Assembly: GCA_026625185.1 (NCBI GenBank)
Contig: CP113000.1
Span: 1,485,622 to 1,517,621, forward strand
Length of the DNA: 32,000 nucleotides
Direction of reading: 5' to 3'
From: Thermodesulfobacteriota bacterium
Lineage (GTDB): Bacteria > Desulfobacterota > WTBG01 > JAGOGO01
Shown one piece after another: positions 10,110 through 24,848 of the stretch. The notes below the pieces were generated by a model. That model worked only from the letters and a program-made list of their open reading frames with translations. It did no database searches and was not told where the DNA came from. Both the position numbers and the translations under genes were made by a program. Position 1 is the stretch's first letter, and each line of letters starts with the position of its first letter.

Positions 10110-10138
10110 TTGACATGATACTTTTTTTGTAATATTAG
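10110..10138 (+). promoter_or_regulatory. Sigma-70-type promoter for the Panacea operon
   Basis: TTGACA, a 17-nt spacer and TATTAG lie ~35 nt upstream of the ATG at 10174. Confidence 0.45.
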
Positions 10139-10173
10139 GCTTCGTAGGAAAATTATTAAATGGTAAACTACCC

Positions 10174-10881: not shown

Positions 10882-11591
10882 TGGGGATTCTACAGTTATA
10901 CTCGCCACAAGACTTTTATGTAACGGTTGATAGAACCGCTTATTGCCAGGGCCAATTTTGTTGGCTGCCCGTTCCTCATATTGATCCCATCCCACGAATA
11001 CTTGATGTTGAGAGGAGCTCACCAACCGAACATAACGAAATCAAATTTGTCTTGCGAAATGCCAATCGAGCGAATGACTTTCAAGCCCTCGACCGCCATC
11101 TTCCTGTTAAAAATCTTAATCTAAGAGCAAACGAGGAACTCTTTGTTCAAAGGGCAAAAAAAAGACCAGGCATTATTATTGCTTCTAAGGTTGATATTTT
11201 TCCCGAAATTACCAACTTATTGCGACAAAAAGGAAGACCCCATCTCCAACAAGATTCCATCTTTGTAATTCCAATTTATTCCATAGAAAATGAAGAAAAA
11301 AAAAGTGGTTTTCCCCAAGAGATAGTTACAAAAACACTCTGCCTCTTATATAAGCAGTTTTTCTATTTACCAAATGGCAAAAGCTTCAAGGAGGGAATTG
11401 CGAGGTTCGACCGAGTACAAGTGGTTGTTTCTCGAGATCGTGCCGCCATTGTACCAATGGATATTTGCTTATCACAAGATGTACTTAACCTTTTTTTTGG
11501 GTTATTTATATACTGTTTAACAGGTGTGGAGGATCCCGATATTAAAGTAGCACGTGATTTAATTAAAGAAACGTATTCTCCAGAATTATAA
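10881..11591 (+). CDS. Hypothetical 236-aa protein, candidate toxin/effector partner (distant PemK/MazF-like motif order)
   Basis: It is translationally coupled to the Panacea gene. The segments 'GQFCWLPVP', 'AKKRPGIIIAS', 'SIFVIPIYS' and 'GIARFDRVQVVVSRDR' occur in the same order as the MazF/Kid core strands, with large insertions. The family call is by eye only. Confidence 0.35.
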   Translation: MGILQLYSPQDFYVTVDRTAYCQGQFCWLPVPHIDPIPRILDVERSSPTEHNEIKFVLRNANRANDFQALDRHLPVKNLNLRANEELFVQRAKKRPGIIIASKVDIFPEITNLLRQKGRPHLQQDSIFVIPIYSIENEEKKSGFPQEIVTKTLCLLYKQFFYLPNGKSFKEGIARFDRVQVVVSRDRAAIVPMDICLSQDVLNLFFGLFIYCLTGVEDPDIKVARDLIKETYSPEL

Positions 11592-11797
11592 ACTTATTAA
11601 TGTACACCATTAAAGCTCTAAAACATTATACCCGGCCTTGAAATGGTTTTTTTATTACCTTTAGGATAAACCCCTACCTCTGGGAATTCTCCCTATAAAA
11701 ATGAGGTAGTTCCCCTATAGACAAGAAGTAAAATTCTTATTATTAAAATAGACTAACAGGACAATTAACTACCTTCCATTACCTCCTCACCCCGAAA

Positions 11798-11826
11798 CCC
11801 TTGCCGGAAACGGTAGGGGTTTTTTA
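11798..11826 (+). terminator. Intrinsic terminator
   Basis: The stem is CCCTTGCCG-GAAA-CGGTAGGGG (9 bp with two G-U pairs and a GNRA loop), followed by GTTTTTTATTT. Confidence 0.6.
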
Positions 11827-12064
11827 TTTCTTTCCCTTCTTTTTCCCCTCCCCTTCCTCAGAGATTTTAAAAGAATTCCTTTTCAATGGAATGTCCGTGG
11901 GAATTTTTTAACCTGAGAGGGACTCCGCTCAGGCGTATAGGTAAAAAATGAAAATTAAAAGTGTTGACTTTCGGAGGATTAAAGCGTTGAATAGAATAAC
12001 CTTCATTTAAAAAAGAAGTTATTCTATAGGGAAAGGAAAAAATGCAATATAAGTGATGGGATAG

Positions 12065-12100
12065 GCCGAATTATCCGTAAAGGGATAGTTCGGCTTTTTT
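12065..12100 (+). terminator. Strong intrinsic terminator with no upstream ORF (possible sRNA 3' end)
   Basis: GCCGAATTATCC-GTAAA-GGGATAGTTCGGC is a 12-bp stem with one G-U pair, followed by TTTTTT. Confidence 0.65.
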
Positions 12101-12174
12101 ATTGGCTGTGTAGAGGAAAAGTGGGAAGTGATAGAAAAGCTTAATAATAGTTAACTCTGAAAGGAGGAAATACT

Positions 12175-12816
12175 ATGAAAAAAATTATAATGTTTTTTAT
12201 TTTCTTTGGGCTTGTAGTTTTCTTTTTATTCCAATTCAGCATCCCAGTTTCAGCCGATAGCTTTCTTTACGATGGCACTACCTGGACTACCCTGAATTAC
12301 CCTGGCGGTGGTCAAACTGATGTCCAGGGTATTGACGGCAACAATATTGTTGGACACTGCGTGGATGGGGGGTTCCTTTATGACGGTACTACCTGGACCC
12401 TTCTGAATTACCCGGGGGGTACTTTCACTGCAGCCTATGGTATTGACGGTAACAATATCGTGGGAATATGTGCTGATTCTGATGGTCGTTATGGGTTCGT
12501 GTATGATGGCATTACCTGGACTACCCTGAATTACCCTGGCTCTGAGTACACTGTTTTCCATGGTATTGACGGTAACAATATTGTGGGAGAGCACTCAAAC
12601 TACTCTCCGGTTAGCCGTGGGTTCGTGTATGATGGCATTACCTGGACCCCTCTGGATAACCCTTGGGGGGATGTGACAATACCTCTTGGCATATCCGGTA
12701 ACAATATTGTGGGAGTATTCGATAAAAGTAATGTTCCCACCCCTGGGACATTACTTCTTGTTGGCTCCGGCCTCATCGGTCTTGCAGGGTTAAGGAGGAA
12801 GTTTAGAACAAGGTAA
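12175..12816 (+). CDS. Secreted repeat protein (four HAF-like ~40-aa repeats) with PEP-CTERM-type sorting signal
   Basis: SD AAAGGAGGAAA precedes the start and a signal peptide is present. The unit 'F(L/V)YDG(T/I)TWTxLNYPG...GIDGNNIVG' occurs 4 times. The C-terminus 'VPTPGTLLLVGSGLIGLAGLRRKFRTR' has a PEP-like motif, a TM helix and a basic tail. Confidence 0.8.
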   Translation: MKKIIMFFIFFGLVVFFLFQFSIPVSADSFLYDGTTWTTLNYPGGGQTDVQGIDGNNIVGHCVDGGFLYDGTTWTLLNYPGGTFTAAYGIDGNNIVGICADSDGRYGFVYDGITWTTLNYPGSEYTVFHGIDGNNIVGEHSNYSPVSRGFVYDGITWTPLDNPWGDVTIPLGISGNNIVGVFDKSNVPTPGTLLLVGSGLIGLAGLRRKFRTR

Positions 12817-12929
12817 TAACAGTAATCGCTTGTTCAGAAGGGACAACATCAGTAACAAGAAAAAAGGAAATAAAAAAAGGGCTTCAAGGATAATTTGTTT
12901 GAGGTTTCCTCCCAAACAATGCTTAACTT

Positions 12930-13043
12930 TCACAGAGTGCTCTTGTGTTGCTTATCCTGCTTCTTTTTTGCTCTTTTCTCCTGTTTGCTTATTTTCTGCT
13001 TCCGACTCTTATTCTTATCCTTTTTCCCGCCTTTGTCTCCCAT
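12930..13043 (-). CDS. Possible 37-aa lysine-rich peptide (MGDKGGKKDKNKSRKQKISKQEKRAKKKQDKQHKSTL)
   Basis: AAGGAG lies 7 nt upstream of the ATG, and the RBS is partly buried in the hairpin TTTTCGTT...AACGAAAA (13056-13083). The composition is low-complexity, so it may be non-coding. Confidence 0.2.
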   Translation of the reverse strand: MGDKGGKKDKNKSRKQKISKQEKRAKKKQDKQHKSTL

Positions 13044-13164
13044 TGCGTGACTCCTTTTCGTTATTAATTCTTAAACGAAAACAGTAATATTAAAAACCTT
13101 AATCGGCAAAGAATCAACTAATGTTTTTCCCCCATCCTCTTCCTCAGAAACTATTGTGCCTGCT

Positions 13165-13620
13165 TTACTTTCTCACGACGAGCACAGGGATTTTTATATC
13201 TTGATGTATTACCCCGAAGGTGACGCTTCCGAGAATCGCTGCCTTTAAAGCGCTTCTGCCCTGAGACCCCATTACGATGAGATCAACTTTTGATTTTACT
13301 GCCTCGTTGACAATTTCTTCCACCGGGTGTCCTGACCGGATGACTTTTTTTGATTGAATACCCTTTTTTGTACAGATTTTTTCACCCTCTTTAAGATAAG
13401 CCTCAGCAGTTTGCTTCAGGTAATGATCAATCGGCTCAATAATATGCGTTGGAGAATCTACCGCAGAAACGGTCTGGGCTATAAAGGAGCCGACATTGAT
13501 ATCGATTACACTCAACAAGGTAATTTTTGCGCCCAATTGCTTTGCGAGGCCAGCTGCATATTTAACAGATTTATTTGATGTTTCCGAACCATCGGTGGGA
13601 ACAAGAATTTTTGAAATCAT
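13165..13620 (-). CDS. Universal stress protein (UspA family)
   Basis: 'ILVPTDGSETSNKSVKYA' and 'DLIVMGSQGRSALKAAILGSVTFGVIHQDIKIPVLVV' are canonical Usp motifs. SD AGGAGGA precedes the start. Confidence 0.9.
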   Translation of the reverse strand: MISKILVPTDGSETSNKSVKYAAGLAKQLGAKITLLSVIDINVGSFIAQTVSAVDSPTHIIEPIDHYLKQTAEAYLKEGEKICTKKGIQSKKVIRSGHPVEEIVNEAVKSKVDLIVMGSQGRSALKAAILGSVTFGVIHQDIKIPVLVVRK

Positions 13621-13681
13621 ATGTCCTCCTTTATTAATAAGTTTAAACGATCGCCGGAGCTAATATTTCGGGAACCAGTTT

Positions 13682-13957
13682 TTATGAAGTCTCTCGTTTT
13701 GGTTTGTCCTTTAGTTTTCTTTTTCTTTCCCCTTCCTCAGGGATAATCGTCATTAAATCATTCGGGGTGCACCCGAAAAAAAGGCAAAGCTTTTCAATAA
13801 TTTCAACATTAGGTTTGTAGTGCCCCTTACTATGGGAAATTTTAGAGATGGTCACCCGTGAGATACCCGTCTTTTCAGCTATCTCATTAATCAAAATAGA
13901 TCGCTTTTCCTTAAATTCCTTATCCTCAAGCAATTGTCTAAAGTGAAATTGTATCAT
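13682..13957 (-). CDS. XRE-family HTH transcriptional regulator (start moved to the ATG at 13957)
   Basis: 'LINEIAEKTGISRVTISKISHSKG...NVEIIEKLCLFFGCTPNDL' is an HTH_3 pattern. The TTG at 13993 used by the ORF track is better read as part of a TTGACA -35 box. Confidence 0.8.
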   Translation of the reverse strand: MIQFHFRQLLEDKEFKEKRSILINEIAEKTGISRVTISKISHSKGHYKPNVEIIEKLCLFFGCTPNDLMTIIPEEGERKRKLKDKPKRETS

Positions 13958-13964
13958 GGTGTTA

Positions 13965-13993
13965 TCTTTACCAGCATTAAAGGTTTTTGTCAA
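13965..13993 (-). promoter_or_regulatory. Promoter giving a leaderless or near-leaderless XRE mRNA
   Basis: On the minus strand, TTGACA, a 17-nt spacer and TAAAGA precede the ATG, which begins ~7 nt after the -10. No SD is present. Confidence 0.45.
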
Positions 13994-14039
13994 TAGCTAA
14001 CAAAAATTAACTTTCGACAATAATTATTTCATTTTTCCT

Positions 14040-14068
14040 TTGACAAACCATTTTTATTGGAGTATTTA
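14040..14068 (+). promoter_or_regulatory. Divergent promoter for the recombinase leader
   Basis: TTGACA, a 17-nt spacer and TATTTA. The predicted transcript runs ~150 nt to the terminator at 14183-14228. Confidence 0.4.
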
Positions 14069-14182
14069 TTTATTATCTTAAGTTAAAAATTATTAACATT
14101 AATTAATTTAACAACTTACATGAAAACCCCGCGTAATCAAAAAGTAAATAGTAACGTTTCCATCCTTCTGGATGGCTTAAGG

Positions 14183-14228
14183 GCCTGGCGCAGGTTTAAC
14201 GTGGGGTTATCCTGTCCGGGCTTTTTTT
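14183..14228 (+). terminator. Intrinsic terminator/attenuator 18 nt upstream of the recombinase start
   Basis: GCCTGGCGCAGG...CCTGTCCGGGC is followed by TTTTTTT. It is preceded by the hairpin CCATCC-TTCT-GGATGG (14160-14175). A long-range pair is AACCCCGCGT (14125-14134) with ACGTGGGGTT (14199-14208). Confidence 0.55.
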
Positions 14229-14246
14229 GCAGAAAGGGGTGAAGTC

Positions 14247-14837
14247 ATGAAGGGAGCGCGTCATTTATCAAAGGAAGAAATTCAAAACCTCACTCAATCC
14301 TTCTATGGGGAATACGAGGTTAGAAACCGGACTCTCTTTCTCCTGGGCTTAAACATCGGAACGAGAATCTCAGAGCTACTGGCTTTGAACGTGGGGGACG
14401 TTTGGCAGTACGGAAAGCCAGTTGCAATCCTTGAGCTAAGGAAGGCCATTACCAAAGGGAAGAAGACCCGGCAAATCCCCTTGAATGAGCAGGCGCGGGA
14501 AGTCATTACCGAGCTTATCGGGTGGAAAGAATCTCAAGGGGAAGACCTCTCTCCCCACGCTCCGCTTTTTGCTTCCCGGCAAGGAAATAAGAGGCTATCC
14601 CGCTTTCGGGTTCATCAGATATTGAAAGAGTCCTTTCAATCAAGCGAATGTTCGGGAAAGGTAAGCACGCACAGCTTGAGAAAGTCATTTGCCAAAGCAC
14701 TCCTTACGGGCGGGAATAACTTAAGAGCGATTCAGATTCTTTTAGGGCACGCAAGCCTTGCTACCACGGAGAGGTATCTGCAAGTATCCCCGGAGGAACT
14801 AAATAGAGCGGTATCCTCTTTGAGCTTTGCAGCTTAA
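14247..14837 (+). CDS. Short tyrosine recombinase (196 aa, catalytic domain only; FimB/FimE-sized)
   Basis: 'NRTLFLLGLNIGTRISELLALNVGDV' carries the catalytic Arg, 'THSLRKSFA' the H-x-x-R, and 'LLGHASLATTERYLQV' the His and Tyr nucleophile. No N-terminal core-binding domain is present. Confidence 0.85.
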   Translation: MKGARHLSKEEIQNLTQSFYGEYEVRNRTLFLLGLNIGTRISELLALNVGDVWQYGKPVAILELRKAITKGKKTRQIPLNEQAREVITELIGWKESQGEDLSPHAPLFASRQGNKRLSRFRVHQILKESFQSSECSGKVSTHSLRKSFAKALLTGGNNLRAIQILLGHASLATTERYLQVSPEELNRAVSSLSFAA

Positions 14838-14846
14838 TGGGAGAGT

Positions 14847-14960
14847 TTGAGATAGAACTTTCTGGGGCTTCTCAGGCGGTCATTTTGTGGGATAGTTCAC
14901 AAGAAAAGGGGCGAGCGCGTGGGTGAGTAAGGGGGTGATTGAGATAGAGCTTTGTAGGGC
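14847..14960 (+). repeat. Pair of 22-nt direct repeats downstream of the recombinase
   Basis: TTGAGATAGAACTTTCTGGGGC (14847-14868) matches TTGAGATAGAGCTTTGTAGGGC (14939-14960) at 19/22 positions. A partial third copy, GAGCTTTGCAGC, lies at 14822-14833. Confidence 0.6.
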
Positions 14961-15010
14961 AAATTAAGTTACACAAAACAATGATTTTGTTGAGTTGGTA
15001 TTAACTATTA

Positions 15011-15316
15011 ATGAAAGGAAGGTGTGTTATGTGTACCGTGGCAGAAGAAGAAAAAACAATTGGCGATCTTCACTATTCCCTTTTAAGGGAAAAAAACAAG
15101 ATTCTATTTTTGGCCGACGTGTTTAATGGGGAAATGATGTTTATAGATAATACTGATGAGAAAAAAAATGCGGACATCTTGGCTGGACTGGGGAACGTCC
15201 TCGAAGACATCGCCGTGACCGTTAACGGCGTAGTTAATGAACTTGAGAAATGGGATTATAAAACCATTTCTTTAACCAACGAAAGGAGAGACCACGAAGG
15301 AAGAAAAAGAAATTGA
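15011..15316 (+). CDS. Hypothetical acidic protein (alternative start ATG at 15029 behind GAAAGGAAGG)
   Basis: The ORF has an SD. It has no recognisable domain. It resembles the following ORF (…LEDIAVTVNGVVNELEKW versus …VEDVAKNIMKYREEY). Confidence 0.5.
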   Translation: MKGRCVMCTVAEEEKTIGDLHYSLLREKNKILFLADVFNGEMMFIDNTDEKKNADILAGLGNVLEDIAVTVNGVVNELEKWDYKTISLTNERRDHEGRKRN

Positions 15317-15527
15317 AGTAACGGAGAAAGAAAAAATCCTGGATTTAGATGGTGGGTTGTTCGAGGTAGTTTGTAGGCTTAAGGTTTTAGATGAATTTTT
15401 GGATAGTTTAATAACCACAGATGAGTTGGGTGAGGAAAACCTTAAAAAACTCCAGGGGATGCAATTAATTGTGGAAGATGTGGCGAAAAATATAATGAAG
15501 TATCGGGAAGAGTATTTGGAGGCGTGA
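15276..15527 (+). CDS. Paralogous downstream ORF lacking a canonical start codon (possible frameshifted continuation)
   Basis: The frame is open from 15276 to the TGA at 15525-15527. A strong SD, AAGGAGAG, lies at 15283-15290, but there is no ATG/GTG/TTG within reach. The sequence is similar to the upstream ORF. Confidence 0.3.
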   Translation, partial: PTKGETTKEEKEIEVTEKEKILDLDGGLFEVVCRLKVLDEFLDSLITTDELGEENLKKLQGMQLIVEDVAKNIMKYREEYLEA

Positions 15528-15869
15528 AACTCCCGGACTGTCCAAAAAATACCCCGCAGAGCTTCTGTAGGACGTCTAAAAGGGGCCTAAAAGCTCTTAT
15601 CTCAGGCGGGTAATGGTAGGATAAGGGGGATTTAAGATCGAGGTTTTTTAGGGGAGAAAAAGACACTTTAGTCGAAGAACATTAAAAAATAGATGGCCTT
15701 GTTTATATCCTTGAGCACCGGGACCGTGGGTAAGACCCTCGATAGGCTTAACCATGAACATCTTGAAGCAAGTGAATTACAAAATCGTTTACATTAATAA
15801 AAGATTATTTTTTTTGGGTATGGTGTTTGACTGGGACAAGGTTAGGGTAGGGGGTAGAAGGTTAAGGAA

Positions 15870-15891
15870 GGGGTGGGGGTATGGGGTGGGG
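15870..15891 (+). other. Canonical G-quadruplex motif
   Basis: GGGG-T-GGGGG-TAT-GGGG-T-GGGG has four G-runs of at least 4 with loops of 1, 3 and 1 nt. Further G-runs lie at 15845-15854. Confidence 0.5.
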
Positions 15892-16153
15892 AGCGATCAG
15901 CGCCTTGACCTGATAATATGGTTTATTCCCTTATACTCTGGGGGTAAAAATTCACCTTGGGAAACTATTTGACCTTTTGCAAAAAAGATTGTTTAATGGA
16001 TTTTATTAAACCAACTTTTGGGGAAGGAATGAAACAAACTGTTTTTGATTTTTATAAGCCCTTCACGCTCCGATTTACAGATCAGAGTGCGATGGGTTTT
16101 TGTTTTTATAAATAGAGGTAAAACCTTCCCAAACTTTGTTGGAGTGAGATAAT

Positions 16154-16582
16154 ATGAAAAGGAGATATTGGATTGTCTTTGCGGCCTTTGGATTTATTGT
16201 TTTCTTTGCCTTAGTGTCACACGCGGCTGAGTGGAAACTTTTCGCAACCAGTGAAGGGGCATCTCATTATTATGACCCGCAAAGAATAAAGCATGTGTCT
16301 AAAGATACCATGCAGGTCTGGAAAAAAATGGTTTTTAAGGAAAAAAGTATACAGGATGTGGTTAAGATGCTTGGGCCTGAATTTAAAGAACTGAGTTATG
16401 AGATTATGTTATGTGAATATAACTGTGATGAAAAGAATCATCGCATCTTATCATCAAAATTTTATAACAAGAAAAGGAGTGTTATACACACATCTCCTAA
16501 AGGTTCTTTTTCTCCTTGGGGTTTTATCATTCCAGACTCTGTTGACGGAACTCTTTTCAATATCGTTTGCGGCAGTCGCTAA
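16154..16582 (+). CDS. Secreted protein resembling surface-adhesin protein E family
   Basis: A signal peptide is present. 'W..F...EGASHYYDPQRIKHVSKDTMQVWKK' and 'CDEKNHRILS...W..IIPDS' follow the pattern of that family. The assignment is by eye only. Confidence 0.45.
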   Translation: MKRRYWIVFAAFGFIVFFALVSHAAEWKLFATSEGASHYYDPQRIKHVSKDTMQVWKKMVFKEKSIQDVVKMLGPEFKELSYEIMLCEYNCDEKNHRILSSKFYNKKRSVIHTSPKGSFSPWGFIIPDSVDGTLFNIVCGSR

Positions 16583-16622
16583 GGTTTTTGGTAATTATAA
16601 AAAGCAATAGAGGGGTGGAGTT

Positions 16623-17324
16623 ATGAAAGGAATTTTAAAAAGCAAAATTTTCTTTATCGGTTTATTCCTTTTCATCTTTCTCATTAATGCCGCTCAAGCA
16701 ACCGAATATCGCCAGTGCACAAGGGTAGTTGACGGCGACACCATTATCCTTGATAGAAACGAGAGAGTAAGGTTAATAGGTGTTGATACTCCTGAAACCG
16801 TCTATCCAAGTAAGCCGGTTGAGTTCTTCGGAAAAGAAGCTTCTGCCTTTACTAAGCGGATGGTACAAGGTAAAAAGGTTCGGTTAGAATATGACTGGCA
16901 GCGCAAAGACAAGTACGGGCGCACCCTGGCCTATATCTACCTCTCGGATGGTACTTTTCTTAATGCCGAGATAATTAAACAAGGTTATGGTCACGCCTAT
17001 ACCAAATACCCGTTTAAATATTTAGAAGACTTCCGTAAATACGAGCGGGAATCACGAGAGAAAAGGCGAGGGCTTTGGGCTGATGATCCAGTGGCAAGCA
17101 CAGAAAGACTTGCTCAAGGTGAAGGGAACAAAAGTCCTCCTGGTCAAATTCTTCCTAACGTAGCACCACAGAAAAGCGAGGCAGTTACCGTCTATGTCAC
17201 AAGGACGGGAGCGAAGTATCATCGAGAGGGTTGTAGATATTTAAGAAGAAGTTCAATTCCAATTTCTCTTGAAGAAGCAAAAAAGCGTTATTCTCCGTGT
17301 AGTGTTTGCAGCCCACCACAATGA
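16623..17324 (+). CDS. Secreted thermonuclease (SNase/micrococcal nuclease family) with C-terminal Cys-rich motif
   Basis: A signal peptide is present. 'VVDGDTIILDRNERVRLIGVDTPET' and 'KDKYGRTLAYIYLSDGTFLNAEIIKQGYGHAY' are SNase core motifs. The C-terminal motif is 'KYHREGCRYLRRS...PCSVCSPP'. Confidence 0.9.
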   Translation: MKGILKSKIFFIGLFLFIFLINAAQATEYRQCTRVVDGDTIILDRNERVRLIGVDTPETVYPSKPVEFFGKEASAFTKRMVQGKKVRLEYDWQRKDKYGRTLAYIYLSDGTFLNAEIIKQGYGHAYTKYPFKYLEDFRKYERESREKRRGLWADDPVASTERLAQGEGNKSPPGQILPNVAPQKSEAVTVYVTRTGAKYHREGCRYLRRSSIPISLEEAKKRYSPCSVCSPPQ

Positions 17325-17330
17325 ATTGAG

Positions 17331-17398
17331 CCCAGCCGGAGGAAGGGAGATGCTTTTACTCCATTTCCTTAATTCCCTTACCCTCCGGCTGGGGTTTT
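17331..17398 (+). terminator. Long-hairpin intrinsic terminator after the nuclease gene
   Basis: CCCAGCCGGAGG (17331-17342) pairs with CCTCCGGCTGGG (17382-17393) and is followed by GTTTT. Confidence 0.5.
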
Positions 17399-17493
17399 AT
17401 CTGTAAGGCCCTACGGTTGAGCTCCCGGAAAAGGCGGGTATCTCCCCTGCCCTGGGCCTTATTTCTATTAGGAGAGCTACAAGGAGAGGTAGC

Positions 17494-18651
17494 ATGGCAA
17501 GAACCAAAAAGAAAGTTGTTGACCTTTTAGCAAATCTACCCCCAAAAACACAATGGCTTTTAGATTTTGCTAATTTGGGGAAAAAGCAAGGGAAGTTAAG
17601 TCCTCCGCGTTTTAGTGAAAAACCCAAGCGAGAACCAAAATATAACGCTAATAATATGCTTCCAGATAGCTTATCTAAGTTCAGAGAGATAGATAAAGAG
17701 GGTAATGTCTTTTTACACAGCGAGGATATAAAAGAGCGTGGTTTTGATGAAAATGGAAGTTCGATCTATGAGCACATAGGACGAAAGGTAACCTGGCTGG
17801 GAAATAGAAGTGCTTATCGCCCTAATAAGGATTTTCCTCTTAAGGAATTTAAGGAATGGGTTTTAAATGTAGGCCTTCCACCTTCTCAAAACCTTTCCAG
17901 GATAGAGATTGCCGAACCCTATTGTGATGACTCACTTGACGATGACCTTGTTACAGTGATGACATATTCCGGGGCAACAAATGAAGTTGATGGAAATCAG
18001 TTTAAATACAGAAATCATTTACTGAAGCTAAAAGAGAATACCACAGAGGACAGGGGGATTCAGGAACTGCTCGCTCGTTATCAGTTGTGGATTAAAAAAG
18101 TTCTTGAGTGGATAATTGACCCCAAGGATACTCAGTTTCTCCCTAAAGGGTTTTTAAAGATTAATTCATTAAATCCGCTTGCACCTTCTATTAACCATAA
18201 CCACAAAAACAGAAAAGAGGTATTTGAACATTCAACCCCTATGCCCTCTATCCCTAAAGCAGTTTGGGCTTACCTCTTGGACTTCTGGGTTAATCAACAA
18301 AACCTTTGTAAGCTACTGAAAGCATGCCCCACTTGTGGAAGGTTCTTCTTTAAAGAGGGGAAAATGACCTATTGCTGCACCAAGTGTAAAACCAGGTTTA
18401 ACCTAATAACCAGGGAAAGTGATGCGAAGAGAAAAAGAGATGGCAGAACAATGCAAAAAGAAAAACTGAGGTCGAGAGAAGAGACAAAGGAGCGTTGGTT
18501 TAAAGAAGAAGAAAAAAAATATCGGGACTACTTCAACGCATTGGGTTACTCACAGGAAGCAATTAATGGTGTAATTGATAATATACTTTATGGAGATGGT
18601 TTATCATTTGAGGAAGGGCTGAAAAAATATCAGTGGGGAAAACGTAGGTAA
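17494..18651 (+). CDS. Hypothetical 385-aa protein with CGNR-like zinc ribbon and basic C-terminal region
   Basis: SD AAGGAGAGG precedes the start. 'CPTCGRFFFKEGKMTYCCTKCKTRFN' is a four-Cys ribbon resembling CGNR zinc fingers. The N-terminal 270 aa have no recognisable domain. Confidence 0.6.
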   Translation: MARTKKKVVDLLANLPPKTQWLLDFANLGKKQGKLSPPRFSEKPKREPKYNANNMLPDSLSKFREIDKEGNVFLHSEDIKERGFDENGSSIYEHIGRKVTWLGNRSAYRPNKDFPLKEFKEWVLNVGLPPSQNLSRIEIAEPYCDDSLDDDLVTVMTYSGATNEVDGNQFKYRNHLLKLKENTTEDRGIQELLARYQLWIKKVLEWIIDPKDTQFLPKGFLKINSLNPLAPSINHNHKNRKEVFEHSTPMPSIPKAVWAYLLDFWVNQQNLCKLLKACPTCGRFFFKEGKMTYCCTKCKTRFNLITRESDAKRKRDGRTMQKEKLRSREETKERWFKEEEKKYRDYFNALGYSQEAINGVIDNILYGDGLSFEEGLKKYQWGKRR

Positions 18652-18682
18652 CTCGTAGAAACAAAATCATCATTTTATTGAG

Positions 18683-18716
18683 AAGCCACGGGGCACAAAG
18701 CCTTTGTGGCTTTTTT
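18683..18716 (+). terminator. Intrinsic terminator
   Basis: AAGCCAC...GTGGCTT is followed by TTTTTATTT, ~30 nt after the stop codon. Confidence 0.55.
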
Positions 18717-18720
18717 ATTT

Positions 18721-18851
18721 GTCCATTCGTTTCTCATTCTAAAACCATGAATAAAGAATGGACTCTAACTATATGTAATTATTATGATAATTGTGGTATC
18801 TATGATATATAGAATGAGGAAAAATAACCAAAAAACGAAGAGTAAATCTTT
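18721..18851 (+). repeat. Regulatory-region repeat, copy 1
   Basis: It is collinear with 19045-19184. The exact 23-mer AATTATTATGATAATTGTGGTAT (18777-18799) contains the palindrome AATTAT-N4-ATAATT. TAAAGAATGGAC and ATAACCAAAAAA are also shared. Confidence 0.65.
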
Positions 18852-18995
18852 ATGCCAAAGATTAACACCAAAGAGAAGGTTACATCACACACAGTTTATA
18901 GGGAGATAAATTATTATTTTTATTATAGCGAGCAAGGAAGTAAGTTATCAAATCTATTCAACAAAAAAGGAAATTTTAAACTTTTTTCATATTAG
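18852..18995 (+). CDS. Possible 47-aa ORF behind repeat copy 1
   Basis: The ATG sits at the same position relative to the repeat as the XRE start does behind copy 2. The SD is degenerate (GAAGAG). No similarity was recognised. Confidence 0.2.
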   Translation: MPKINTKEKVTSHTVYREINYYFYYSEQGSKLSNLFNKKGNFKLFSY

Positions 18996-19044
18996 TAGGG
19001 AGGAAAAATATGACCTTTTTAGTCAACTAAATGAAAAAAACAAT

Positions 19045-19184
19045 GTCCACTCTTTTTTATACTAAAAACCATAAGTAAAGAATGGACGCTAAGTATATAG
19101 AATTATTATGATAATTGTGGTATACATTGAGTGGGGAGAGAGAAAAGAAGTAAAAAATAACCAAAAAAGTAAGGAGTAAACACT
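19045..19184 (+). repeat. Regulatory-region repeat, copy 2 (upstream of the XRE gene)
   Basis: The same 23-mer lies at 19101-19123. The repeat ends with SD AAGGAG and the ATG at 19185. Confidence 0.65.
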
Positions 19185-19382
19185 ATGACAAAAAATCAGC
19201 TTCACGAGGTAAGGAGAGAGAAAAGAGTTCGTCAATGGGAACTGGCAGCAATAGCAAGAGTTCATCAAAGCAGGCTATCGCTTGCCGAGAATGGTTTCAT
19301 ATCTTTGAAGCCGGAAGAGGAAGAAAGAGTTGCTCAGGCCCTTGGAGAAGACCCTAAAAACATTTTCCCGGAGGTTAATTAA
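19185..19382 (+). CDS. Small XRE/Cro-like HTH regulator
   Basis: 'VRQWELAAIARVHQSRLSLAENGFISL' is an HTH_3-like pattern in a 65-aa protein. It is the first gene of the replication operon. Confidence 0.75.
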   Translation: MTKNQLHEVRREKRVRQWELAAIARVHQSRLSLAENGFISLKPEEEERVAQALGEDPKNIFPEVN

Positions 19383-19552
19383 TGAAGATAAACGAGATTG
19401 AACGCAGAAAATATTTAGCCCTTCAAGCTTTCTATCTTGAGACAAAGCGGGCAATGGAGGTCCTGGAAAAAAAGTTAAAGGCAAAGCCAATAGAGCTAAA
19501 ACACGTTGAGGTTTTAGAGTGCCAGGAGAAAGTGAATGCTTCAACTTGTTAA
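19382..19552 (+). CDS. Hypothetical 56-aa protein (below the ORF-track cutoff)
   Basis: Its ATG overlaps the preceding stop (TAATG). The predicted protein is helical and K/E-rich. Confidence 0.4.
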   Translation: MKINEIERRKYLALQAFYLETKRAMEVLEKKLKAKPIELKHVEVLECQEKVNASTC

Positions 19553-19709
19553 ACCACAACGGGCTAACGATACCGAACTTGAAATCACCCGGCTTGAGCG
19601 GGTTAGAGGTGAACTCGCTGACATTGCCATTGAGCGGAATTTGAGCGGGGAAGCGAAGCAATCCTTTAGCTCAACGATTGACTGGCTAACCTTTTTCATA
19701 AACGAATAG
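19536..19709 (+). CDS. Hypothetical 57-aa protein (below the ORF-track cutoff)
   Basis: Its ATG overlaps the end of the previous ORF. It ends 25 nt before the primase start. Confidence 0.35.
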   Translation: MLQLVKPQRANDTELEITRLERVRGELADIAIERNLSGEAKQSFSSTIDWLTFFINE

Positions 19710-19734
19710 AAAGGGAGAGATAGAGGGCTCGGAG

Positions 19735-21789
19735 ATGAAACCAATTTACGAAAACATACCGAAAGAAATTAAGCTATACCCACAATGGGTAAACTGGAGA
19801 GAGGTGGAACGGGACGGAAAGGCCACGAAGCCCCCATTCCAGCCTGACGGGAAATTCGCTGAATCGAACAACCCCTCAACGTGGAACACCTTTCCCACTG
19901 TGAAAGAGGCTGTTGATCGTTTTGATGGCATAGGCTTTGTTCTTACAGAAGATGATCCCTATGTTGGGATTGACTTTGACAAGTGCTACTGTCCCGCCTT
20001 CAAGATCATTGACCCGGCTATCGAACAACACATTAAAGCACTAAACACGTACACAGAGATTAGCCCATCCGGTAGGGGACTCCGAACCTTACTCCGGGGC
20101 CGTCTCCCAGTGGACGGTAAGAAAAACGGACGTGTGGAAGTTTATCAGGCCAAGCGGTATGTGACTATCACCGGAAATAAATTGCCTGGTTATCCGGCCT
20201 TTATAGAAGCGAGTCAGGCAGAATTAGAAACCTTCTATCAAAAGGTATTTCCCGAAAAAGCGGAAATTACAAAACAGACCCCGGCTAATGCAAGCCAAGC
20301 CCCTCAACCCCTCAACTGTGATTGTCGGGACAAACTGAAGGCCGCTTTCAATTCTAAGAATGGGGCAACCATAAAGCGATTATACGACGGTGATCTTTCC
20401 GGCTATCCTTCGCAATCGGAGGCTGATCTTGCCTTATGTGACCACCTTGCTTTCTGGCTTTCCGGTGATTCAGGGGCCATAGATCAGGCTTTCCGGGAAT
20501 CAAAGTTATTTCGCAAGAAATGGGATGAAAAACATTTTTCCGGTGGCAATACGTATGGTGAAGCAACGATTCAAAAGGCTTTGAGCGATCTTATAGATAC
20601 CTATAACCCGCAAACATATTTTTCCTCATTGGAGACCACTACCAATACACAGGAGAGTATTGAACCAGAAATAAAAGCCGATTCCTTACCCTTCCCGGAC
20701 ACAATGGAAGGCATGGCCGGGGACTTTGCAAGGATTTACTCGCGACACCTTGAAGCACCGGAGCATTTCTTCTTTTTATCCTTCCTAACCTGTCTTGGAA
20801 GTATCCTCTCTGGCCGCTTAACCTTAAATAGCGAGCTTTCACCGCAACCAAGACTCTTTGTTCTTTTGCTGGGTGAAAGTGCCGATGACCGAAAGAGCAC
20901 CGCTATATCTAAGACGGTTGAGTTTTTTCACGAGGCTATAACTGATTTTCGGACTTCGTGGGGCGTGGGAAGCGCGGAAGGTCTCCAACGAAAGATTGAG
21001 GAGAACAACCAACTTTTACTGTGCTTCGATGAATTTAAGCAATTTGTAGGGAAATGTAAAATCGAGACCAGCGTTCTCCTGCCATGTGTTTGCACTCTAT
21101 TTGAAAGCAACCGATATGAGGCCCGGACTAAGACGGTAGACATTTGTTTAAAAAACGCTCACCTCTCAATGCTGGCAGCTTCAACGCTCCAGACCTACCA
21201 ATATACCTGGGATAGTTCTTTCACTGATATAGGGTTTAACAACAGGCTTTTCATTGTGCCCGGTGGTGCTGAAAGAAAGTTTTCCATTCCTTCCAAAATT
21301 CCTGAAAACGAAAAAAGTTATCTGAGAAAAAACCTGAGAAATATTCTGGGAGACATTGGGACTGGCTTGACGTTGGACATTACAGGGGAAGCAAAGGATT
21401 TATACCACAATTGGTATTTGAACGGGGAGCGCACGATCCACGGCAAAAGGTTGGATACCTATGCCTTGCGGTTTATGAGTCTTTTGGCTGTCAATGAAGG
21501 TAAGGCGGAGATTGACCGGGAAATTATTGAGAAGGTTATTGCACTTGTCAACTGGCAATTAGAGGCTCGAAAGTTACACGATCCGATAGATGCGGATTCG
21601 AGTGTTGCAAAACTTGAAGAGAAGATAAGGCGGGTTTTAAAGTCAGACCCCAAAACAGAGAGGGAGTTAAAACTTTCTACCCACGCGCACCGAGCGGGGC
21701 TTTGGACTTATGAAAGAGCAAAACAAAACTTAATGCAATCACAGGAAATAGGGTGGGTGAAGGAAATAAAAAAATGGAAGCTTACTTAA
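19735..21789 (+). CDS. Bifunctional primase-polymerase (Prim-Pol + PriCT-like helix bundle) fused to a DUF3987-type helicase/ATPase domain
   Basis: 'YPQWVNW...KPPF...GIGFVLTEDDPYVGIDFD...EISPSGRGLR' is an AEP Prim-Pol N-domain. 'SQSEADLALCDHLAFWLSGDSGAIDQAFRESKLFRKKWDE' is a PriCT-type motif. C-terminal 'LFVLLLGESADDRKST' is Walker-A-like, as in DUF3987. Confidence 0.85.
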   Translation: MKPIYENIPKEIKLYPQWVNWREVERDGKATKPPFQPDGKFAESNNPSTWNTFPTVKEAVDRFDGIGFVLTEDDPYVGIDFDKCYCPAFKIIDPAIEQHIKALNTYTEISPSGRGLRTLLRGRLPVDGKKNGRVEVYQAKRYVTITGNKLPGYPAFIEASQAELETFYQKVFPEKAEITKQTPANASQAPQPLNCDCRDKLKAAFNSKNGATIKRLYDGDLSGYPSQSEADLALCDHLAFWLSGDSGAIDQAFRESKLFRKKWDEKHFSGGNTYGEATIQKALSDLIDTYNPQTYFSSLETTTNTQESIEPEIKADSLPFPDTMEGMAGDFARIYSRHLEAPEHFFFLSFLTCLGSILSGRLTLNSELSPQPRLFVLLLGESADDRKSTAISKTVEFFHEAITDFRTSWGVGSAEGLQRKIEENNQLLLCFDEFKQFVGKCKIETSVLLPCVCTLFESNRYEARTKTVDICLKNAHLSMLAASTLQTYQYTWDSSFTDIGFNNRLFIVPGGAERKFSIPSKIPENEKSYLRKNLRNILGDIGTGLTLDITGEAKDLYHNWYLNGERTIHGKRLDTYALRFMSLLAVNEGKAEIDREIIEKVIALVNWQLEARKLHDPIDADSSVAKLEEKIRRVLKSDPKTERELKLSTHAHRAGLWTYERAKQNLMQSQEIGWVKEIKKWKLT

Positions 21790-21793
21790 AACT

Positions 21794-21978
21794 GTTACCA
21801 ATTTTGTTGCCACCTAAAAAACAGGGGTATTCGTTCATAAATTCAAATGGTTACACAGTTTCTTATAATAGAGGAAGTAAAAAAAACCTCTCTCTTATAT
21901 ATATGGCTTTTTTTGCTGTTTTCCCCTTTATTTTCCTGTGGTTATGACCGAAAAAAAAGTGGCAACACTTTTGGTAAC
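21794..21978. repeat. 20-nt inverted repeats flanking a 145-bp promoter-containing segment (ori or invertible switch candidate)
   Basis: GTTACCAATTTTGTTGCCAC (21794-21813) faces GTGGCAACACTTTTGGTAAC (21959-21978); the outer 8+8 nt are exact and 17/20 match overall. Inside lie TTCAAA-16-TATAAT (21842-21869) and a further GGTTAC. Confidence 0.5.
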
Positions 21979-22061
21979 ACTTTGTTTTGAAGTGCCTCAA
22001 ACCGAGTCCGAGGTACGGGTGGATGGTGGACATAAAAAACCAATAAGGAAGGAAAATCGAA

Positions 22062-22499
22062 ATGGATAATGACCGTATTTCAGGGGAACTAAAACCGATT
22101 ATCAAGCGAGATGAATTAGGCAGGTTTTTACCTGGAACACTGGCAGGGCCAGGATGGCGCAATAGAAATGAGGAAACGCAAAAATTAGCACAACTACGAG
22201 ATGATTTATTAGCTGGCAGTGAAGAAGCAATTGCAGAACTTAGAAAGCTACTAAAGGAAAGTAAAAGCGAAAACGTAAAGGTAAACGCTGCTAAGATTCT
22301 AATCGTTTGCGCGAAGATCATTCCCGACCAGGTTTTTCATGAATCGTGGAAAATGATCCTCAAGAAGGAAGAAGGGGGCAAAAAGGAGGGATTGCTCGCC
22401 GCGCTCCCGGAGTTCGGGGAATATTTAGCCTGGAAAGCTCAACAGGACGCTAACAGAGTGATCGATGTTACTTCAAGTCACAAGGAGGGCAAACAATGA
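22062..22499 (+). CDS. Hypothetical protein with DUF5681/small-terminase-like N-terminal motif
   Basis: 'RDELGRFLPGTLAGPGWRNRN' resembles the G-R-F-x-x-G...G-x-G motif at the N-termini of phage TerS-like/DUF5681 proteins. The assignment is weak. Confidence 0.5.
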   Translation: MDNDRISGELKPIIKRDELGRFLPGTLAGPGWRNRNEETQKLAQLRDDLLAGSEEAIAELRKLLKESKSENVKVNAAKILIVCAKIIPDQVFHESWKMILKKEEGGKKEGLLAALPEFGEYLAWKAQQDANRVIDVTSSHKEGKQ

Positions 22500-22819
22500 C
22501 ACTGGGTGAAATACTGCAATTACAAAACCAAACACTTGGCGATTTTTCATCGGCGGCATATCCACAACAGGGGTTTCAGCTTCCTCCCGGCTGGCTGGAA
22601 TGGCTTTTGAGAAACTGGCAGATGATGGGTAGCACAAGACCCGAATATACGCCAGGGGCTGAAGATAGGACGGTGGGGCCGCAAGAGATGTATCAGCTAA
22701 AAATACCCGCCTGGCAACCAAACCCTGAGTATGGGGTGGATAAGATGAGAATTCCCCAGGAGAAACTACAGAAGCGATTAAAAAGGGTTTCTGACCCGAA
22801 CCGCTTGAGGAGAATTTAA
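22496..22819 (+). CDS. Hypothetical protein
   Basis: Its start overlaps the previous stop (ATGA). It lies in a compact same-strand operon. No domain was recognised. Confidence 0.5.
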   Translation: MTLGEILQLQNQTLGDFSSAAYPQQGFQLPPGWLEWLLRNWQMMGSTRPEYTPGAEDRTVGPQEMYQLKIPAWQPNPEYGVDKMRIPQEKLQKRLKRVSDPNRLRRI

Positions 22820-22821
22820 CC

Positions 22822-23118
22822 ATGCAGAAGTTTATCGCGCCAAGAGTTTTAACGGTCAACGGAAAGCCTTCTCCCTGCAAATGTACCGATTCAATCGTTT
22901 GTGAGTACTGCACGCAAGCGAACCTGATCCTCTGGGAGAAAAAAGAGAACCCGGAAAAAGAAATCCAAGACAAAATTATAGCCGATTTAAAGGCCTCAGG
23001 AGTCCGTAAAACGGCCCGATTATTAAAAGTACGTCCTTCAACCATAATTAGTTGGATTAAAACGGGAAATATCCCATCCGGGTATATAGAAAATTTAAAG
23101 AGCGTTTCCCGGACATAA
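22822..23118 (+). CDS. Small HTH protein upstream of the integrase (candidate excisionase / AlpA-like regulator)
   Basis: The C-terminal 'VRKTARLLKVRPSTIISWIKTGNIP' is an HTH. The N-terminal Cys cluster is CKC...CEYC. The function is inferred from position. Confidence 0.5.
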   Translation: MQKFIAPRVLTVNGKPSPCKCTDSIVCEYCTQANLILWEKKENPEKEIQDKIIADLKASGVRKTARLLKVRPSTIISWIKTGNIPSGYIENLKSVSRT

Positions 23119-23331
23119 TACCCTACGCACACGCAAAAAACCGTACCACTTCGCCATTGAAATTATTGAGGTTTTTAGGGGTAAAAATAGCAGTCCCGGA
23201 CTTTATCAACCATCGAAACTAAGACATTAATGATTTTCCCGCAAGCCACAAAAAAAGCATTTGCAAACCCTTCCGCAAGCTATGCTAATATTCCTTCTTT
23301 AACTACTTCATTTAAAGAAGGGAGGCTCTGT

Positions 23332-24492
23332 ATGCTCGGAGGCGTTTATAGCGACCAGAGGTGTCCGTTATGCGGGGGATCATTCAAGGATGATGGCAAG
23401 CGTGGTTTGTCCTGTCCGAATCATCCAGAACAAAGGGCAACTAATTTTAGGATTGCTTTCAAGGGGCTTTGTCTTAGGTTTATAAACTACGACGATGCTC
23501 AACAAGTGCTTTCTGGTATGCGGTTTAAATTCCGTGAGGGGTCTTTTGATGACCGGGACTACCGGAAGGATCAACCCCTTGGGTTCTCGAATTTAGCAGA
23601 CCAGTTTCTTATTTACAAGGCGACAGTAGAAAAGAAGCGATCAACCGGGAAAATGGTTTATCACTTAAATTATGGCAGAAACTTTTTCCAGAACCGGAAC
23701 ATCAAGGACATTGGCGAAGGGGAGCTGCAAGACCTCTTAGCCTTCCTGCCCTCTCACCTATCCGATAAGACCAAGAAGAATATTTTTACTACCCTTCATT
23801 CTCTGTGGGCCTGGGTTCAGAAGCGGGAGAGAAAAAAAAATCCGTTTTTTATTATTCCTGAATTCCCTTCTATCCAGTATCAGCTCGCATGGCGCAGGAT
23901 TGTTGATAAGCCTACTCAATGGCAGATACTTCAAGAGATAGAAAGAATAGCGCCTAATCCCAAGATATACTTAGCTTGTCTATGGCTTGCCACTTATCCG
24001 AATGTAAGACCGGGTGAGCTTATCCACGTTAAAGAAAAAGACTTTGACCTACTTAACGGTACTCTGGAAATTAATTTCAACAAGGAGAATAAACCCAAGA
24101 AGATTTATCTCCTCCCGGAAGACGTTGAAACCGTCAAGTCCTTCCCCCGCAGTTTTCCTGATCTTTATTTTTTCCGAAAAAAAACTGGAAGGACATTTGG
24201 AGGAAAACTTCTCTGGAGGTGGTGGAAGCGAGCTTGTGATAACTCAGGTGTTGAAGGTGTGCCTCTCTATCCAGGGACAAAACACTCAACCGCTACAGAC
24301 CTTAAGCGCTCTCTCGGTGCCACAAGAGCAAGAGAAGCAACTGGACATACAACCAACAAAGCTTTTGAAAGGTATATTGTGGGAGATCCAGAAGACCTCC
24401 GGGCACTCTATGCTTATGCACGGCCTGACAAAGGTCTGACAAAGAATTCTTGCCCTTCTGGGAATGGTAACTTATTGAAACTTAAAGAATAA
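23332..24492 (+). CDS. int: Tyrosine integrase with N-terminal zinc-ribbon (start set at the ATG behind GAAGGGAGG; the ORF track starts at 23230)
   Basis: 'CPLCGG...CPNHPE' is a zinc ribbon. 'YPNVRPGELIHVKEKDF' carries the Arg. 'GTKHSTATDL' and 'GHTTNKAFERYI' carry the His and Tyr. The stop lies 2 nt from the tmRNA 3' end. Confidence 0.9.
   Translation: MLGGVYSDQRCPLCGGSFKDDGKRGLSCPNHPEQRATNFRIAFKGLCLRFINYDDAQQVLSGMRFKFREGSFDDRDYRKDQPLGFSNLADQFLIYKATVEKKRSTGKMVYHLNYGRNFFQNRNIKDIGEGELQDLLAFLPSHLSDKTKKNIFTTLHSLWAWVQKRERKKNPFFIIPEFPSIQYQLAWRRIVDKPTQWQILQEIERIAPNPKIYLACLWLATYPNVRPGELIHVKEKDFDLLNGTLEINFNKENKPKKIYLLPEDVETVKSFPRSFPDLYFFRKKTGRTFGGKLLWRWWKRACDNSGVEGVPLYPGTKHSTATDLKRSLGATRAREATGHTTNKAFERYIVGDPEDLRALYAYARPDKGLTKNSCPSGNGNLLKLKE
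24425..24444 (+). promoter_or_regulatory. Tandem CTGACAAA motifs (candidate arm-type sites), ssrA-proximal end
   Basis: CTGACAAAggtCTGACAAAG lies 51 nt inside the proximal att core, in the same orientation as 10018-10037. Confidence 0.5.
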
Positions 24493-24494
24493 AA

Positions 24495-24848
24495 TGGTGG
24501 AGGCGGGGGGAGTTGAACCCCCGTCCGAAAGCATTCAGCTCAGAGTATCTCCATACACAGTCTCGGTTTTATTAAGCGTTTTTATTCTCCCCGAGACAGG
24601 ATGATAAAAACGCTCATCCGGGTTGTTTTCGCCTCACACCATCCGGATACTGAAATGAGGCTATCCTGCTTATTCGACGCCTCTTCCCGCTCCACAGGAG
24701 AAAGCGAGAGAGACGGAAGCCGCGTTAAGCGGCTACAGCGTAATTATAATCGTTGGCGATTATGTTATTTTCACCAGTTTAACGAGATGGTGAAACCTCG
24801 GTATGCAACTCCGGCCTCAATTACCCCCGTCGAAGCCATTTCGCCCCC
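24495..24848 (-). ncRNA. ssrA: tmRNA (transfer-messenger RNA)
   Basis: The minus strand begins GGGGGCGAAAUGGCUUCGACGGGGG and ends GGGGGUUCAACUCCCCCCGCCUCCACCA. The acceptor stem has a G3-U pair. The tag frame GCC AAC GAU UAU AAU UAC GCU GUA GCC GCU UAA (24725-24757) encodes ANDYNYAVAA. smpB lies immediately upstream. Confidence 0.95.

Follow-up and report, generated by a model that had tools for sequence, protein, structure and literature searches.

A Small-Terminase-Like Gene Shared with Uncultured Phages Points to a Probable PICI-Like Satellite at the ssrA Gene of a Thermodesulfobacteriota Bacterium

Could a chromosomal island with its own replicase and integrase travel in the particles of a phage, and which phage would carry it? 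We ask this of a 32,000-nucleotide stretch of DNA from a Thermodesulfobacteriota bacterium (contig CP113000.1, positions 1,485,622 to 1,517,621; the window), in which an original prediction, made from the letters alone, had described positions 19185-24492 as a minimal gene block without structural genes and had suggested a P4-like or phage-inducible chromosomal island (PICI)-type satellite. Our listing of open reading frames (ORFs) reproduced exactly the eight same-strand ORFs described for this block. We conclude that, on balance, the block belongs to an island that is most likely a PICI-like phage satellite redirecting the terminase of a helper phage, of a family not yet described; its key protein, p145, is probably a small terminase subunit (TerS) and has close relatives in uncultured phages.

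The Small-Terminase Question

The protein p145 (22062-22499, plus strand) is a probable small-terminase-like packaging protein. Its C-terminal part is specific to the family, and ahead of this come a single HEAT-like repeat and, at the N-terminus, a DUF5681-like motif. The protein carries the motif GRFLPGTLAGPGW, and its N-terminal GRFLPGNPPGPGW motif resembles DUF5681. We found only ten close homologs among 5.8 billion proteins, and a profile search of 1.8 billion representatives returned 26 hits, among them several false positives due to HEAT repeats. The family occurs in two settings: in at least four islands, just upstream of a helix-turn-helix (HTH)/AlpA gene and int, and on at least two metagenomic phage contigs, where it heads the structural module and is accompanied by HNH, TerL, portal, and capsid genes. 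Two of the ten close homologs lie on long contigs that also encode the large terminase subunit TerL, and these are the phage copies (loci L004 and L013).

In five members of the family, one and the same segment independently matches PHROG 2538, "terminase small subunit" (P0010, E=4.9e-7; P0029, E=1.9e-4; p145 of the window, E=2e-4; P0015, E=8.9e-4; P0011, E=5.6e-3), and the p145 homolog of a related island (G028) matches DUF5681 weakly (E=0.01). The distant member P0029 finds an ORF of ~100-125 aa in Acetobacter phage phiAX1, Xanthomonas phage PBR31, Enterobacter phage vB_Ecl_MII_001, and the assembled phage ctvy9321. This ORF overlaps the start of the gene in TerL position in 4/4 phages checked; that gene is an annotated TerL in three of the four and, in phiAX1, an unannotated 448-aa ORF directly upstream of the portal gene. 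Aligned by hhalign with these four TerS-position proteins, the close p145 family gives E=1.9e-4 and a probability of 48%, in a collinear alignment that runs from the GNPxG motif to the AAK.I..A.G.P.Q helix; a wider alignment raises the probability to 57%, and this alignment includes P0029, the source of the four proteins. The original prediction had tied its reading to a TerS or DUF5681 relationship of p145, and such a relationship is what the PHROG 2538, weak DUF5681, and hhalign matches point to. Comparison of the window with the related island L006 gives dN/dS values of 0.095 for p145, 0.043 for the adjoining p107, and 0.12 for the integrase gene, and all three are therefore taken to be working genes.

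Several observations weigh against a packaging role for p145 and, with it, against the satellite reading. No Pfam or NCBIfam TerS family reaches its threshold for p145, and the hhalign probability stays at 48-57%. The AlphaFold2 models are all-helical and of low confidence (pLDDT 58 and 64), and Foldseek against BFVD gives nothing below E=0.4, with a DUF5681 protein as top match and three TerS entries listed. The phage homolog lies 2.3-3.7 kb upstream of TerL, with an HNH gene and small ORFs between; the phage contigs are incomplete, and another TerS could exist elsewhere in those phages. Neither a pac nor a cos site was identified, and no non-coding DNA is common to island and phage. The genome that carries the island holds no homolog of the phage's capsid protein or TerL.

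A PDB profile search with p145 finds only a HEAT/alphaRep-like repeat; IMG/VR and GTDB pattern scans using the p145 alignment contain no relatives, a metagenome scan with the same alignment yields three short contigs only, and neither p145 nor P0010 has a tblastn match in 50,697 phage records. A search for a pac site or late promoter common to island and phage shows a vague G-rich patch upstream only, and no clear block of suppressed synonymous change inside p145. The sole rival for the TerS role by position is a 143-aa ORF just upstream of the phage TerL; we consider it an unlikely candidate, since it seems beta-rich in composition and, in the second phage (L013), has two extra ORFs between itself and TerL.

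Phage Relatives and a Candidate Helper

Among the phage copies, identity to p145 is highest for P0003, at 78% in tblastn and 80% in the protein search. Its gene opens a metagenomic contig of 25.7 kb (ERZ27247771 k141_61985; loci L001, L004, and L007). In L004 it is followed by an HNH endonuclease gene, small ORFs, an intein-split TerL, an SU10-like portal, a PF25209 capsid protein, an SU10-type adaptor, and then a dozen further late genes encoding up to 1167 aa. The second phage (L013) has a DUF559 gene, its p145 homolog P0006, an HNH gene, small ORFs, and an intein-free TerL, in that order. The identity of 78-80% between p145 and the L004 copy compares with 68% between the two phage copies, and because the island copy is closer to L004 than the phage copies are to each other, we infer a recent exchange between island and phage. 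Similarity between island and phage at the DNA level is confined to the p145 coding sequence, and p145 appears to be the island's single phage-derived gene.

We rejected a resident helper, since the bacterium's own genome lacks homologs of the phage's capsid protein and TerL and holds a single copy of p145; the helper would therefore be an incoming phage. CRISPR spacers from 42 genomes of the class gave only chance-level matches to the phage. A contig that extends the phage leftwards (L002) starts, at positions 1-87, with a CRISPR repeat-spacer-repeat whose 32-nt repeat, GTCGCGCCCCATGCGGGCGCGTGGATTGAAAC, is identical at 30/31 aligned nt to degenerate orphan arrays in the bacterium's own genome (C1:2224165, 2226877, and 2227187); the spacer has no match in the data searched. 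This short array may be a phage-borne mini-array or may mark a prophage adjoining an array, and the shared repeat hints that the phage infects this host lineage.

Two further observations concern the phages themselves. The TerL gene of L004 (3370-6180) has its P-loop (GNQGGG|C) interrupted by an intein of ~420 aa with a LAGLIDADG homing endonuclease, and L013 carries the intein-free allele, with a C-extein 92.7% identical to that of L004. PDB and tblastn checks of the phage's tail genes gave no match.

A Family of Islands with Exchangeable Replicases and Integrases

The window's island is one of four (the others being L006, G028:C168, and L040) in which a p145 homolog, small gene(s), an HTH/AlpA gene, and an integrase gene lead up to a tRNA or tmRNA gene. 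L006 (JGI 3300015266) has identities of 89% for the integrase, 92% for p98, 99% for p107, 95% for p145, 71% for p57 (the second mini-ORF), and 98% for p101; in it a DnaG-zinc-ribbon/AAA_25 primase-helicase replaces the window's PrimPol, and DNA similarity resumes at window position 21995. G028:C168, from another genus of the same family as the host, has in order an int-alpA RNA, a 407-aa homolog of p385, an XRE-like gene, a DnaG zinc-ribbon primase and a DUF3987 protein, the p145 homolog, a PC4-like gene, an HTH_17 gene (E=1e-12), an integrase gene, and tRNA-Sec. L040 carries the p145 homolog P0010, an HTH_17 gene, an AlpA/HTH_17 gene, and an integrase gene of a third type. With three replicase types and three integrase types among four islands, p145, the HTH/AlpA gene, the integrase gene, and the tRNA-type attachment (att) site appear to be the constant parts, and the replicases and integrases to be the parts that are exchanged.

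The replicase of the window (19735-21789, plus strand; 684 aa) consists of an NrS-1-type PrimPol (residues 1-300) and a DUF3987-type P-loop helicase-like domain (residues 310-683). It had been predicted as a Prim-Pol-DUF3987 protein, and the PrimPol half of that label is borne out by matches to phrog_1829 (E=9e-81), the NrS-1 HBD family PF22763 (E=6e-26), and PDB 6a9w, the NrS-1 primase (E=2e-32). The DUF3987 half has no direct Pfam match in the window protein and is backed indirectly, residues 310-683 being 72% identical to the helicase domain of the G028 protein, which matches PF13148 (E=3.8e-10). A second PrimPol of the NrS-1 type, a paralog of this one, lies ~1 Mb upstream in the genome (C1:487695-488558, locus L043; 40% identical over residues 6-285, in a 637-aa ORF), with no p145 beside it.

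Directly after the replicase gene comes the non-coding segment that had been described as repeat-bounded, and it is so: it spans 21790-22061 and holds a 25-nt inverted repeat (21789-21813 / 21959-21983; 84% complementary). We predict an origin of replication at 21789-21983, where two inverted TGGYAACA iterons directly follow the replicase stop and are separated by an AT-rich spacer of ~145 bp from two direct iterons; all five TGGYWACA sites of the 32-kb window (5/5) fall within 21793-21979. The G028 island has the same layout built from TGGCTACA, with 5/6 sites in 13 kb clustered vs 0.2 expected, and L006, whose replicase is unrelated, has at least nine GGAAAC repeats at the same place instead. 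Since the iterons adjoin the replicase gene on its 3' side and, across three islands, vary in step with the type of replicase, the segment reads as the cognate iteron origin of the self-priming PrimPol-helicase. In Staphylococcus aureus pathogenicity islands (SaPIs), too, the origin comes immediately 3' of the replicase gene and has its iterons on either side of an AT-rich stretch.

Boundaries, Insertion Site, and Cargo Arm

The ssrA gene, which encodes tmRNA, lies on the minus strand at 24495-24848 (ARAGORN and Rfam, 224.9 bits), and the 30 nt of its 3' end (24495-24524) form attR. A direct repeat of this end, detected as an Rfam tmRNA fragment at 9941-9975, forms attL and the left island boundary. 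The two copies (9941-9975 / 24490-24524) are 35 nt long and identical at 34/35 positions, and the 20-nt core of the repeat occurs twice in the window vs 0 expected. From this repeat we derive an element of 14.5 kb (9976-24494) that appears to be integrated in the 3' end of ssrA. The start of the module had been placed at 19185, which proves too far to the right: the conserved core begins at about 17404, with the int-alpA RNA and a 385-aa gene, and the whole element spans 9976-24494.

A third, truncated copy of the ssrA 3' end lies at 7182-7206 (25/25 nt match) and apparently records an older insertion, the remnant of which (7207-9945, 2.7 kb) flanks the island on its left and contains solely the minus-strand gene of a 649-aa TPR/membrane protein. 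Together, third copy and remnant suggest serial insertions at ssrA. In two congeners the ssrA site has the same flanks (a 767-aa oxidoreductase gene and ssrA-smpB), with differing DNA between. One of them (G023) has none of the island's genes there; the other (G024) has a Usp gene and a 55-aa C-terminal integrase fragment, 80% identical to the island's integrase, that reads as the footprint of a decayed island of the same family. This fragment directly adjoins ssrA (G024:C22, locus L033 9037-9201) and is 94% identical to the L006 integrase.

At the right end, Int420, a tyrosine integrase of 420 aa (23230-24492, plus strand; phrog_1, E=7.5e-17), has an N-terminal Cys-rich motif, CPLCGG...CPNH, and closes the block as had been predicted, its stop lying 2 nt from the ssrA 3' end. 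Between it and p145 lie two small plus-strand genes. p107 (22496-22819), a 107-aa orphan protein with one homolog only, has a start that overlaps the p145 stop and is evidently under strong purifying selection. p98 (22822-23118) occupies the Xis/AlpA position; it had been called xis-like, and its own HTH matches fall below the cut-off (HTH_17, E=0.003; carph-isopro HTH, E=1.3e-6). At this position G028 and L040 carry clear HTH_17/AlpA genes.

The left part of the island, as scanned with Pfam, PHROGs, and PADLOC, is a variable cargo arm of ~7.5 kb (9976-17400). Two genes at its outer end (10174-11591) overlap: the first encodes a protein with a Panacea (SocA-like) antitoxin domain (PF13274, E=3.8e-7) and runs into the start of the second, which encodes a 236-aa protein with no family match. 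The two form a candidate PanA-type toxin-antitoxin pair. The arm further holds genes for a PEP-CTERM protein, Usp, and an XRE regulator, a tyrosine recombinase of 196 aa with the catalytic domain only (14247-14837), and p101 (15011-15316). At 16154-17324 an Adhesin_E-like lipoprotein gene is followed by that of a secreted SNase-type nuclease (16623-17324) with a signal peptide and a Cys-rich C-terminal extension; the nuclease matches the PADLOC candidate C3a212 (SNc+LTD; E=6e-37) and is possible defense cargo. Outside the island, a 163-aa ORF at window positions 2444-2935 has an N-terminal HTH, resembles the front part of an IS30-type transposase, and adjoins exopolysaccharide genes.

The absence of capsid, tail, and lysis genes that had been noted for the right-hand block extends to the main ORFs of the whole island, in which Pfam, PHROGs, and PADLOC scans matched no structural, lysis, or relaxase family. 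The components that are forbidden in PICIs, namely tail, holin, portal, and connector genes, likewise had no match among the ORFs scanned (17 main island ORFs against PHROGs and 18 against Pfam, with the Usp gene compared with Pfam and PADLOC only).

The int-alpA RNA and Regulation

The conserved core opens with an int-alpA RNA motif (Rfam RF02996; 17404-17475, plus strand) that scores 38.2 bits against a gathering score of 35.8 and lies ~20 nt upstream of p385 (17494-18651, plus strand), a conserved core protein with a C-terminal CxxC...CxxC zinc ribbon. In the G028 island the motif has the same position (L019 347-418; 54.1 bits), and the 407-aa protein that follows it there is 35% identical to p385 (E=4e-67). 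We found only two other p385 homologs in 5.8 billion proteins. The motif is reportedly associated with the int/alpA regions of P4-like type elements. Here it may act as a cis-acting leader of the p385-type gene, and that role, if true, would give an orphan RNA motif a conserved genetic and functional context beside a zinc-ribbon gene.

Downstream of p385 and of a terminator-like hairpin (18680-18715) lies a tandem promoter/operator duplication (18720-19192, plus strand; ~81% identical), in which the duplicated stretch of ~330 bp is upstream of the XRE gene. Both copies contain a 17-nt inverted repeat (GTCCATTC...GAATGGAC) that overlaps a promoter-like site of the form TGGAC[T/G]-18-TATGAT. Nothing but a doubtful 47-aa ORF follows the first copy; the second lies ahead of the XRE gene and is predicted to drive xre, p56, p57, and primpol. 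The XRE gene (19185-19382, plus strand) encodes a 65-aa HTH regulator whose predicted Cro-like nature agrees with its matches to HTH_31 (E=1e-5) and the phrog_3 repressor (E=2.5e-6). The two overlapping mini-ORFs that had been described next to it are those of p56 (19382-19552) and p57 (19536-19709), plus-strand genes of 56 and 57 codons, both without family matches. A second promoter-like site (21842-21869), inside the predicted origin, may drive p145, p107, p98, and int. We saw no plus-strand terminator-like site within either the xre-primpol or the p145-int unit.

The Satellite Reading and Its Alternatives

If the island is a PICI-like satellite, its cycle would run as follows. Infection by a helper, an uncultured phage of the k141_61985 type with an SU10-like portal, would relieve repression at the operator; Int420 and p98 would excise the element, and the PrimPol-helicase would replicate it from the origin at 21789-21983. 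p145, as a TerS that still fits the TerL of the helper, would then direct island DNA into helper capsids. No capsid-size-remodeling gene is recognizable in the island, and therefore either multimers would be packaged into full-size heads or some unrecognized factor would act. From sequence, then, we infer excision, replication, and packaging of the island alike.

Were p145 to serve some end other than packaging, for example as a regulatory or recombination accessory, the locus would instead be a self-replicating integrative island independent of phage particles, either cryptic and plasmid-like or mobilizable by conjugation or vesicles. We consider this unlikely, though it is the alternative with the firmest footing. 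The p145 gene lies directly upstream of the HTH/AlpA and integrase genes in 4/4 islands and may belong to an integration module, and its homology to TerS lies below curated thresholds; sets of Int, AlpA, and DUF3987/PrimPol also occur in elements that are not proven satellites, and elements with three markers ("Type C") have been treated as ambiguous (de Sousa et al. 2023; PMC10085698). The phage copy, however, is found not near an integrase but in the structural and packaging region, by an HNH gene and upstream of TerL and portal, and TerS matches in PHROGs recur across the family, with distant relatives in TerS position. For conjugation in particular, the island scans matched no relaxase, oriT-associated, or type IV secretion system gene.

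It is still less probable that the element is a satellite or defense island in which p145 acts mainly as a decoy TerS, poisoning helper packaging rather than serving the island's own transfer. The identity of 78-80% to the phage protein, with a conserved central and C-terminal part, would suit a decoy, as would the conflict-type cargo of a Panacea toxin-antitoxin pair and an SNase nuclease (C3a212, E=6e-37), but a mobile life cycle, rather than a static defense gene, is the better fit for a dedicated replicase with its origin, an integrase, and an Xis-like gene that purifying selection has maintained in four islands. The two roles are, moreover, not mutually exclusive, and the TerS/Ppi systems of known PICIs combine interference with own transfer. 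A decayed prophage that has lost its structural genes would account for the phage-type integrase, XRE regulator, primase, and terminase-like gene and for the older remnant and third att copy next door, yet it is very improbable given a gene-poor architecture repeated in four independent islands that differ in integrase, replicase, and att site, core genes that are intact and under purifying selection, origin iterons conserved with their replicase, and no pseudogenized structural genes between the att sites.

Returning to the satellite reading, we tentatively go one step further, with the odds falling a little short of even: the window may be the first representative of an undescribed satellite family of uncultured, anaerobic, sulfate-reducer-type bacteria. 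This family would combine a novel TerS lineage (DUF5681-like motif plus HEAT-like repeat) exchanged with phages that have SU10-like portals, swapping of replicase-origin cassettes, interchangeable integrases for tmRNA and tRNA-Sec, and an int-alpA RNA/zinc-ribbon unit with a putative hijacking role. Catalogs of phage satellites are almost confined to Proteobacteria and Firmicutes whose helpers are in culture. If true, a family of satellites among uncultured anaerobes of hydrocarbon-degrading or subsurface communities would broaden the range of hosts in which satellites are known, bring a new TerS lineage into annotation resources, and extend replicase-origin cassette exchange in satellites beyond model systems. 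It would also mean that a single shared packaging gene suffices to recognize a helper lineage, making satellite-helper pairs traceable in metagenomes.

Relation to Known Satellites

Of the two labels in the original prediction, the PICI-type one is partly supported and the P4-like one falls, as no sid, psu, delta, or P4-alpha homologs were found. The island does share with P4-like elements an integrase, an HTH gene in AlpA position, a large primase-helicase, and tRNA-type attachment, but its replicase is an AEP PrimPol of the NrS-1 type rather than P4 alpha, it has a TerS-like gene, which P4 lacks, and no PHROG or Pfam match to sid, psu, delta, epsilon, or alpha was obtained, so we reject membership. 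Assignment to the capsid-forming PICIs (cfPICIs) was likewise rejected, since the island has no capsid, portal, head-tail adaptor/connector, or TerL of its own.

The PICMIs (phage-inducible chromosomal minimalist islands) of Vibrionaceae resemble the island in their core of Int, AlpA-type HTH, and DUF3987-type primase, in a non-resident (virulent) helper, and in having no capsid-remodeling genes, which makes multimers in full-size heads plausible. PICMIs integrate next to fis, which their authors name as a hallmark, and have no packaging gene (no terS) (Barcia-Cruz et al. 2024; PMC10803314). The island, in contrast, lies in ssrA, carries a TerS-like gene, and measures 14.5 kb vs ~6 kb; membership fails, as it is not beside fis and does carry that gene. 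The PICI-like tycheposons of Prochlorococcus (Hackl et al., bioRxiv 10.1101/2020.12.28.424599) also resemble the island, being tyrosine-recombinase elements at tRNA/tmRNA genes with VirE/DUF3987-type primase/helicase hallmark genes and with either TerS or the major capsid protein (MCP) as sole phage-structural-type gene, and they too are predicted satellites without a cultured helper. They belong to another phylum, are likened to the island by gene content rather than core-gene homology, and in their PICI-like form are reported without cargo (bioRxiv 10.1101/2020.12.28.424599), unlike the island with its 7.5-kb cargo arm.

The nearest comparison is with PICIs, which include SaPIs and Gram-negative elements such as EcCICFT073 and whose functional definition we take as in SatelliteFinder (de Sousa et al. 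2023; PMC10085698). Differences remain: the TerS-like family of the island is separate and uncharacterized, with its DUF5681-like motif and HEAT-like repeat; its gene adjoins an HTH gene and int, with all core genes on one strand; the host is an uncultured anaerobe of the sulfate-reducer type, outside the taxa with cataloged PICIs; and the presumed helper is not a resident prophage. The island has no match to a capsid-morphogenesis gene, which is optional in PICIs and absent from their Type B, and we found no ppi or rpp homologs in it. The PICI regulation module (an alpA, merR, or stl homolog) may have its counterpart in XRE and p98, the latter with a sub-threshold HTH_17 match (E=0.003). Membership of the hijack genes in the PICI family at the sequence level is unproven; by function, the island appears to work like a PICI and to be most like Type B, with int, a regulator, pri-rep, and a probable TerS, and with neither a capsid-morphogenesis gene nor forbidden components. 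It shares with PICIs a size of ~15 kb, att repeats, a site-specific integrase placed at one end, regulation by a dedicated gene, a primase/replicase whose predicted origin lies 3' of its gene (as in SaPIs) and swapped replicase modules, a probable TerS homolog as the sole packaging gene in an element free of tail and lysis genes, and accessory cargo carried on an arm.

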